From the NCBI RefSeq assembly GCF_037300705.1, contig NZ_CP147776.1, forward strand, positions 5,026,857 to 5,090,856: a stretch of DNA of 64,000 nt, in the 5' to 3' direction. The translations under genes and the position numbers were made by a program. The DNA comes from Massilia sp. W12. Lineage in GTDB: Bacteria; Pseudomonadota; Gammaproteobacteria; Burkholderiales; Burkholderiaceae_D. Every line of letters starts with the position of its first letter. The first letter of the stretch is position 1. Of the stretch, positions 47,701 through 48,483 are shown in pieces. The notes beneath the pieces are model-generated. The model saw nothing but the letters and a program-made list of their open reading frames with translations, had not been told where the DNA came from and made no database searches.

Positions 47701-47956
47701 GCAAGTCCTGGCCGGCCAGTAAGCCGCAGCGCTTGAACAGGCGGCGCAGGCGCAGCAGGCGGTGGGCGCGGCGGCGCAGGCGGCGCCGGGCGAGGCGTTT
47801 TTCGCGCCGGCTTTTGTTTAACGATTCGCCGGTTTTCGGCACTTCCGCCTTGTCAAAGGCGCGCACATGCAAACCGAGTATGCGTTCACCCTGCAACACC
47901 GCTGCGCCAACTGACGCCATGCCGATATCCAAACCAAACACCAATTCTGCGCTCAT
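44774..47956 (-). CDS. cas9: Cas9 (type II-C, 1060 aa) with RuvC-I, HNH and RuvC-III motifs.
   Basis: N-terminus [15 protein letters not shown] (RuvC-I Asp), an Arg-rich bridge helix [62 protein letters not shown], and RuvC-III [10 protein letters not shown]. Its size and the absence of csn2/cas4 imply II-C. Confidence 0.95.
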   Translation of the reverse strand: [1060 protein letters not shown]

Positions 47957-47993
47957 ACTGGCATTCCTTTAAAAACTGTTTTATACTCGACTC

Positions 47994-48090
47994 ATTGTAG
48001 CTTTCCGGGGTGAGAGCCGTTGCTATAATAAAGTTGTCCCTTCGGGGACAAGCTGTATCCAACCCGGCTTCGGCCGGGTTTCTCTTTTCT
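47994..48090 (+). ncRNA. tracrRNA: tracrRNA, divergent from cas9. It has an anti-repeat, two UUCG-tetraloop hairpins and an intrinsic terminator. A putative -10 TATACT lies at 47982-47987.
   Basis: ATTGTAGCTTTCCGGGGTGAGAGccgttgCTATAATaaag… matches the reverse complement of the repeat (ATTATAGCTTTCCGGGGTGAGAGaggaaaCTATAAC) with an internal mismatch bulge like the Neisseria tracrRNA (…GAGAACCGUUGCUACAAUAAGG…). Then GTCCCttcgGGGAC and CCCGGCttcgGCCGGG + UUUCUCUUUU. Confidence 0.8.
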
Positions 48091-48483
48091 GCCTCCCCTT
48101 TTGCACTGCTCTTGCTGATACGCCTTTGTGGCGACACATGGGGCCTGACGCCGGCGTATCGCTGCGCGCAACCCGGCCACTTTCTTGGCCTTGAATCGGG
48201 TTGAGTGAGCGCTTTGATTTTACCTGCACGCTGTGTTGTTTTATGCTTGATGCGCGTAAAATCAGGCTGTTGCTTAGTCAATAAAACAACGACTTGTTAA
48301 ACTGCCAGTGTTTGTGTTGGCGCAGTGTATTGATCTGCAATGCAACTTTCCGCCGATGCGCTATGGCGCGCCGGGCTGCGATGTTTGCAGTGTCCCATTT
48401 TTAACGCTTTTGCGCGTGGCGGCGCTTTACCCTTTGCGGCTTCCGTTGTAAGGTGAGCCATCGTCACGCCTGCAGGAGTTGTT

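Follow-up and report, generated by a model that had tools for sequence, protein, structure and literature searches.

The closest described relatives of the system considered here are type II-C CRISPR-Cas9 systems (clusters of regularly interspaced short palindromic repeats and associated genes), in which anti-repeats lie mostly upstream of cas9 and of which the Neisseria meningitidis (Nme) representative transcribes its arrays opposite to the cas operon; a divergent placement of the trans-activating CRISPR RNA (tracrRNA) upstream of cas9 has been described since 2013 (PMC3737331). The sequence and structure of tracrRNAs are not alignable across subtypes (Chylinski et al. 2013, PMC3737331), and in the Nme single-guide RNA (PMC6594998) GAGAACCGTTGCTACAATAAGG precedes a bulged stem-loop and a terminator. 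Here we consider a 64,000-nucleotide (nt) stretch of the soil bacterium Massilia sp. W12 (NZ_CP147776.1, positions 5,026,857 to 5,090,856; hereafter the window, whose own coordinates are used throughout), in which, judging from its sequence and that of related loci, 47994-~48087 on the plus strand very probably encodes the tracrRNA for a type II-C CRISPR-Cas9 system of the Neisseria type. An earlier note, made from the letters of the window alone, had proposed a tracrRNA here that is divergent from cas9, preceded by TATACT 7 nt upstream, nearly identical at 47994-48016 to the reverse complement of the CRISPR repeat and able to pair with CRISPR RNA (crRNA) repeats from either array, continuing as in N. 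meningitidis into the same bulged duplex, and ending in two UUCG-capped hairpins of which the second, with a U-run, would be an intrinsic terminator. All of this has held up at the level of sequence, and the fold, co-fold and covariance search that the note suggested as checks are included in what follows. The parts of the predicted gene are these:

47958..47987 (+), promoter-like site found by consensus scan: -35 CTGGCA (47958-47963), 18-nt spacer, -10 TATACT (47982-47987)
47994..48087 (+), predicted tracrRNA transcript of ~94 nt, matched over its whole length by covariance model R1 (below)
47994..48016 (+), anti-repeat long arm, pairing with repeat positions 14-36 through 22 Watson-Crick pairs and one G-U pair
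48017..48021 (+), CCGUU bulge facing repeat UUCCU, invariant in the family and identical in N. meningitidis tracrRNA
48022..48029 (+), anti-repeat short arm GCUAUAAU, whose partner is repeat positions 1-8 (GUUAUAGU)
48032..48054 (+), stem-loop 1 from fold and covariation: 4 base pairs (bp), a 1-nt 3'-side bulge, 5 bp and a UUCG loop
48061..48092 (+), predicted intrinsic terminator from a terminator scan: 8-bp stem with UUCG loop (48061-48080) and T-rich tail TCTCTTTTCT

The long arm (ATTGTAGCTTTCCGGGGTGAGAG) is, but for a single mismatch, the reverse complement of the 36-nt repeat over its last 23 nt. This repeat reads GTTATAGTTTCCTCTCTCACCCCGGAAAGCTATAAT in crRNA sense (e.g. 41492-41527) and is identical in the two arrays of the window, so that the anti-repeat could pair with crRNAs from either. 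Among 48 matches to the repeat with up to three mismatches it is the only one outside the two arrays, where none is expected by chance (0/100 shuffles). The bases 3' of the long arm read CCGTTGCTATAATAAAG, in the order CCGTT, GCTATAAT and AAAG, and co-folding with the 36-nt repeat RNA yields arms of 23 and 8 bp on either side of an asymmetric bulge, at -50.1 kcal/mol, as against -21.3 kcal/mol for the wrong strand of the repeat. No second anti-repeat was found by pattern search, blastn-short or, once the arrays were masked, by scanning 30-56 kb for duplex energy; the top windows of that scan all lie at 47971-48050(+), at -50.4 kcal/mol. Complementarity to the repeat of its own locus, as expected of a tracrRNA, is therefore unique in the window, and the better partner elsewhere that the earlier note had named as a ground for rejection did not appear there.

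The resemblance to N. meningitidis extends well beyond the pairing itself. Both systems have a 36-nt repeat with palindromic ends and a duplex in which a CCGUU bulge separates an 8-bp arm from a long one, with the common sequence GAGA(A/G)CCGUUGCUA(C/U)AAUAA(G/A)G; in both, stem-loop 1 carries 5 bp over a 1-nt bulge on its 3' side and leads into a short linker and a terminator hairpin; and both carry a cas9-cas1-cas2 operon with an array transcribed opposite to it and clearly homologous Cas9 proteins. The stem-loop sequences differ, those of Massilia having UUCG loops, as does the linker, which is GUAUCC in Massilia and GCAACGCUCUGCC in Nme. The distal long arm is CCGGGGUGAGAG in Massilia, a portion at which we take the full-length Nme tracrRNA to differ. 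A more distant likeness is to the type II-A system of Streptococcus pyogenes, where the tracrRNA gene also lies next to and upstream of cas9; there, according to work cited in PMC12477760, a long form, tracr-L, acts as a single guide of natural origin and represses the cas promoter. Nothing suggests such a long form in Massilia, since the tracrRNA start is only 37 nt from the cas9 ATG.

The sigma-70-like arrangement CTGGCA-18-TATACT is the lone promoter-like site in a consensus scan of 47500-48600 and predicts a start at ~47994, a base that sits 7 nt past TATACT; -10-like hexamers recur at the same offset across the family of related elements described below, and terminator signals recur likewise. 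The two hairpins, GUCCC-UUCG-GGGAC and CCCGGC-UUCG-GCCGGG with its U-run, are recovered by fold prediction, the second also by the terminator scan at 48061-48080. For the 3' part (48030-48087) the predicted fold has an energy of -26.8 kcal/mol (z = -4.6; 0/200 shuffles as good), and for the whole RNA z is -3.6. The G-U pairs in the stems and the presence of a T-run on one side only speak for the plus strand.

Homologous elements accompany related cas9 genes elsewhere. A genome scan with the Cas9 protein gave three loci, in two Thiobacillus metagenome-assembled genomes (MAGs) and one Burkholderiales MAG (Cas9 55-57% identical), and in all three a homologous element closely precedes cas9 and is encoded on the opposite strand. 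An exact scan of metagenomes with the 16-mer GGTGAGAGCCGTTGCT, which lies across the junction of long arm and bulge and hence is unable to match repeats, returned at least 120 stretches, and the full tracrRNA-like context was present in 76 of the loci examined. Wherever tblastn sees cas9 the element is immediately upstream of it and on the opposite strand (68/68 loci), the motif lying ~40-135 nt from the first aligned Cas9 residue; the Cas9 proteins of these relatives are about 41-57% identical to that of Massilia over full-length matches. In the eight loci without a cas9 hit, cas9 is cut by the contig end in four, the Cas9 N-terminus is visible at a relaxed threshold in two, and two are relics. 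In both relics (L111, ~512-720; L120, ~1330-1500) the tracrRNA gene is intact while cas9 is down to its first few codons: ~15 codons fused directly to a CRISPR repeat in L111, and a stop codon after two codons in L120. Another variant occurs in the Burkholderiales MAG (L003, 5860-5890, minus strand), whose tracrRNA homologue has an extra hairpin, TTCAGATTTATCTGAA, between stem-loop 1 and the terminator, which indicates that the linker tolerates insertions.

When 69 distinct elements are aligned (alignment A2), the core CCGGGGTGAGAGCCGTTGCT is invariant, while the hairpins vary in sequence yet always pair, with GNRA and UUCG loops interchanging. RNAalifold detects compensatory changes in 13/22 pairs. 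For the two hairpins alone, 95.7% of cells hold standard pairs, a share that drops to 33-47% if the 3' partners are shifted by 1-3 columns, and 13/14 pairs show changes on both sides, as would be expected of the conserved 3' stem-loops of a tracrRNA; the covariation score is 0.53, compared with 0.11 or less, and 0/500 shuffles reach the observed values. Columns 40/73 of stem-loop 1 (GC in 41 elements, AU in 27) provide one example of compensation, and the terminator helix has compensatory changes in 8/9 of its pairs. Both 3' hairpins are upheld by compensatory evolution. Covariance model R1, for which 67 other loci but not the window were used, aligns end to end with 47994-48087(+) and scores 74.4 bits there (E 3.1e-14); its other matches in the window are array repeats only, at 22 bits or less. 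R1 has no match in L004, L006 or L007 (Cas9 32-39% identical), which indicates that this RNA family does not reach those clades and belongs to the clade of Massilia-type Cas9.

The anti-repeat also changes together with the repeat. Both an array and the element are present in 23 loci; in every one of these the tracrRNA strand, opposite cas9, is also the crRNA-sense strand of the repeat, and the shape of the duplex is constant across 23 distinct repeat/anti-repeat combinations in which the distal long arm changes on both partners; for instance, a repeat with ...GGATGAACTAC accompanies anti-repeat GTAGTTCATCC, and one with ...GGTTAGCTAC accompanies GTGGCTAACC. Such co-evolution is a further property expected of a tracrRNA. 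Massilia is the odd one in this set: its repeat has GTTATAGTTTCC where all 22 others have GTTGTAGCTCCC, and ends in GCTATAAT, differing from all of them at positions 4, 8 and 10, and also at 33, where L054 is changed too. In the terminal palindrome of the repeat, position 4 pairs with position 33, and the two have changed together. Correspondingly, the short arm of the tracrRNA is GCTATAAT in Massilia and GCT[A/G]CAAT in all other loci, a C-to-U change that compensates repeat position 4, while the long arm has kept its G, leaving the G-U pair. In its placement and strand with respect to cas9, its promoter offset, the geometry of its duplex and its two hairpins, the Massilia element agrees with this uncharacterised family of tracrRNAs from environmental Burkholderiales, Thiobacillus and related type II-C systems, but it alone has the GCUAUAAU short arm.

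It is important to note that several observations weigh against a functional Neisseria-type tracrRNA. The -35 CTGGCA is only a 4/6 match to consensus, and a single promoter-like match where 0.5 are expected by chance is weak evidence alone. An Rfam scan of 34-50 kb at E up to 1 gave no match to a tracrRNA family, although the element would belong to the same functional class as the Rfam tracrRNA family (an anti-repeat, then 3' hairpins and a terminator); that family is, we believe, RF02348, built on type II-A sequences. The same scan returned only sub-threshold matches of CRISPR-DR34 (Neisseria-type) to the repeats, at 28.4 bits, below the gathering score of 35, though orientation and terminal stem agree. 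Neisseria repeats presumably carry the TG of an extended -10, whereas those of Massilia are without it, so that promoters inside the Massilia repeats can only be putative. Finally, no protospacers for either array were found in a phage collection (a plasmid collection was outside the search), so that no protospacer adjacent motif (PAM) can be derived and recent activity of the system cannot be shown.

Alternatives have to explain the same facts. The element might be an orphan, degenerate CRISPR repeat beside cas9, left over from an array or from an old leader-proximal repeat, and give no functional RNA: its first 23 nt are repeat-derived, the weak R1 matches to true repeats show the likeness, and insertion sequence (IS) activity has rearranged the locus. 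A remnant of this kind, however, would not be expected to have the CCGTT bulge, two covarying hairpins and a T-run preserved at one and the same offset in ~75 loci, nor to follow changes in the repeat, nor to hold an orientation to cas9 that is fixed in 68/68 loci, and we consider it extremely unlikely. It is also possible to read the opposite strand as coding, since an open reading frame (ORF) for a protein of 131 amino acids (aa) with a TTG start runs through the region at 47886-48281(-). This frame is open, but it overlaps the first 71 nt of cas9 in another frame and has no Pfam match. Its GC content is flat over the three codon positions (0.52/0.54/0.51), in contrast to the strong third-position bias of its neighbours (0.68-0.71 at the third position and 0.42-0.49 at the second in cas9 and in the genes for a pyridoxal phosphate (PLP)-dependent enzyme and a kinase), and the regions homologous to it in other loci have indels that are not multiples of three and change as base pairs, not codons. 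In GenBank, cas9 and the gene after it carry consecutive protein accessions (WXG35840, WXG35841), which implies that the submitted annotation has no coding sequence between them. The ORF is spurious, as the earlier note had held, and the chance that the region encodes a protein is practically negligible.

The relation of the element to the start of cas9 is more delicate. The tracrRNA start is 37 nt from the cas9 ATG on the opposite strand, adjacent to cas9 as a tracrRNA gene is expected to be, and the two genes are interleaved: the cas9 start codon (47956, minus strand) adjoins the -35 of the tracrRNA promoter, and an AAGGA ribosome-binding site lies between its -35 and -10. The same layout is seen across the family, with CAT and CTCC/CCTCC motifs 20-40 nt upstream of the tracrRNA start. 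Because the ribosome-binding site and ATG of cas9 are inside or beside the tracrRNA promoter, cas9 mRNA must start within or beyond the tracrRNA gene, and the consensus scan of 47500-48600 gave no separate minus-strand promoter for cas9. Both points would suit an element acting mainly in cis, as the 5' leader or promoter region of cas9 on the minus strand with hairpins that regulate cas9, rather than as a trans-acting tracrRNA. Against this, the T-run follows the hairpin on the plus strand only, G-U pairs in the stems (GU 8 at columns 110/141, GU 7 at 108/143, and a U-G of the window in stem-loop 1) would be A-C mismatches on the minus strand, and the anti-repeat covaries with the repeat, for which a cis leader offers no reason. 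A mainly cis-acting element therefore seems very unlikely, although a cis role could exist alongside the tracrRNA role.

A further reading, which we regard as unlikely, is that tracrRNA gene and cas9 make up a single compact, overlapping bidirectional module derived from a CRISPR repeat. The start of the anti-repeat reads GCTACAAT on the minus strand, a repeat-type -10 situated 37 nt upstream of the cas9 ATG; were it to act like the repeat promoters of Neisseria, cas9 mRNA would start ~32 nt before the ATG. The final T of this -10 is kept in only 16/74 family members, which weakens the idea of a bidirectional module. As a cas9 promoter the repeat-type -10 in the anti-repeat is not adopted here, being unconserved in the family. 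If the module were real, it would couple the expression of Cas9 and tracrRNA mechanically, through promoter competition or 5' antisense overlap.

The tracrRNA reading, which we retain, places the element in what is recognizably a type II-C CRISPR-Cas locus with a Neisseria-like Cas9:

44774..47956 (-), cas9, type II-C, 1060 aa (Pfam HNH_4, RuvC_III and Cas9_a; RuvC-I motif and HNH motif EIEH...NRNKGN present)
43834..44772 (-), cas1 (Pfam Cas_Cas1); likely start ATG 44772, one base past the cas9 stop codon
43505..43846 (-), cas2 (Pfam CRISPR_Cas2); start uncertain, GTG 43846 or ATG 43813
43455..43478 (+), hairpin CCCTTGA/TCAAGGG followed by TTTTTT, read from the sequence by eye, directly past the last array 2 repeat
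41434..43441, CRISPR array 2, crRNA sense plus, convergent with the cas operon: one 5'-truncated and 30 full 36-nt repeats, 30-nt spacers
35697..36764, CRISPR array 1, crRNA sense minus: 16 full repeats and one cut after 12 nt, apparently the inverted distal half of the original array

The Pfam row of cas9, cas1 and cas2 only, without csn2 or cas4, is that of type II-C, and at 1060 aa the protein is a compact Cas9 whose top solved relatives are Nme1Cas9 entries (nearest 6jdq, 806 bits, E 2.9e-241). The source record of Massilia sp. W12 names the protein Cas9 (WP_338846133.1); it is the sole member of its own 90%-identity cluster and apparently intact. Its HNH region (window 46150-46260, residues about 565-600) reads EIEH, with the downstream NRNKGN and the RuvC-I motif intact; Massilia has glutamate before the catalytic histidine in EIEH, where we take Nme and Cje Cas9 to have aspartate. 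The locus is adjoined directly by a CRISPR array beyond cas2 and by the gene of the PLP-dependent enzyme on its other side. Between the tracrRNA terminator and that gene, a PLP-dependent cysteine synthase family gene (48484-49578, plus strand), lie ~380 nt (48100-48483) with no convincing ORF and no promoter-like or Rfam match, a stretch that may be where the CRISPR-cas island ends.

Arrays 1 and 2, which are inverted relative to each other, once formed a single array, as their junctions indicate; an IS3-type element divided it within a repeat. TTCC, likely a 4-bp target duplication, is common to the two truncated repeats, GTTATAGTTTCC (35709-35697, minus strand) and TTCCTCTC... (from 41434), and each of them abuts an end of an IS3-type element; 35607-35700 (94 nt) is 99-100% complementary to the IS ends 38132-38225 and 39019-39109. 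Transposase genes of IS3 type and of Tn5/IS4 type (36784-38289) fill 36784-41383, and the IS3-type orfA/orfB copies between the arrays show partial tandem duplications. This arrangement fits an insertion of IS3 into a repeat, after which the distal half was inverted. The 44 spacers are all unique and have a length of 30 nt, and comparison with the window gave only two 14-nt chance matches as possible self-targets.

In N. meningitidis, each repeat contains a promoter from which crRNAs start at the spacer's sixth base, and ribonuclease III (RNase III) is dispensable (PMC5965381, PMC12477760). Every Massilia repeat ends in the consensus -10 hexamer TATAAT, with no -35 in the repeats; together with the 30-nt spacers and the hairpin and T-run past array 2, this means that both halves of the split array could be expressed without a leader. 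The layout of array 2 fits leaderless, repeat-promoted transcription of crRNAs towards cas2, and the hairpin at 43455-43478 is a possible terminator of such plus-strand transcripts. By homology with N. meningitidis, we hypothesize that transcription would yield plus-strand crRNAs from array 2 and minus-strand crRNAs from array 1, probably starting at the -10-like TATAAT at the 3' end of every repeat, and that the repeat part of each would anneal to the anti-repeat. Cas9 would then bind the crRNA:tracrRNA duplex and the 3' stem-loops, the long arm perhaps being trimmed by RNase III, which is probably dispensable, and the ternary complex would cut DNA matching the spacer beside a PAM. Given that RNase III is dispensable in the Neisseria paradigm, RNase III dependence is a poor test of the tracrRNA reading.

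A search of the literature for the tracrRNA core sequence, in DNA and RNA spelling, and for a Massilia Cas9 tracrRNA gave nothing relevant, supplementary files being outside the search. The Massilia tracrRNA is nonetheless another member of a well-known class, and the prediction of tracrRNAs from cas9-adjacent anti-repeats is routine; the understanding of Cas9 systems is unchanged by it, and its value is practical. It completes the parts list of a Cas9 ortholog and offers a guide scaffold for one more compact Cas9: by analogy with Nme, a single guide can be drawn from repeat nt 1-18, a GAAA loop and the anti-repeat from GAGAGCCGUU onward, that is, guide + GUUAUAGUUUCCUCUCUC-GAAA-GAGAGCCGUUGCUAUAAUAAAGUUGUCCCUUCGGGGACAAGCUGUAUCCAACCCGGCUUCGGCCGGGUUUU. 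The same RNA, likewise divergent from cas9, is common to many environmental type II-C systems, for which the alignment and R1 could seed a family, and that family is a clean case of co-evolution between repeat and anti-repeat.

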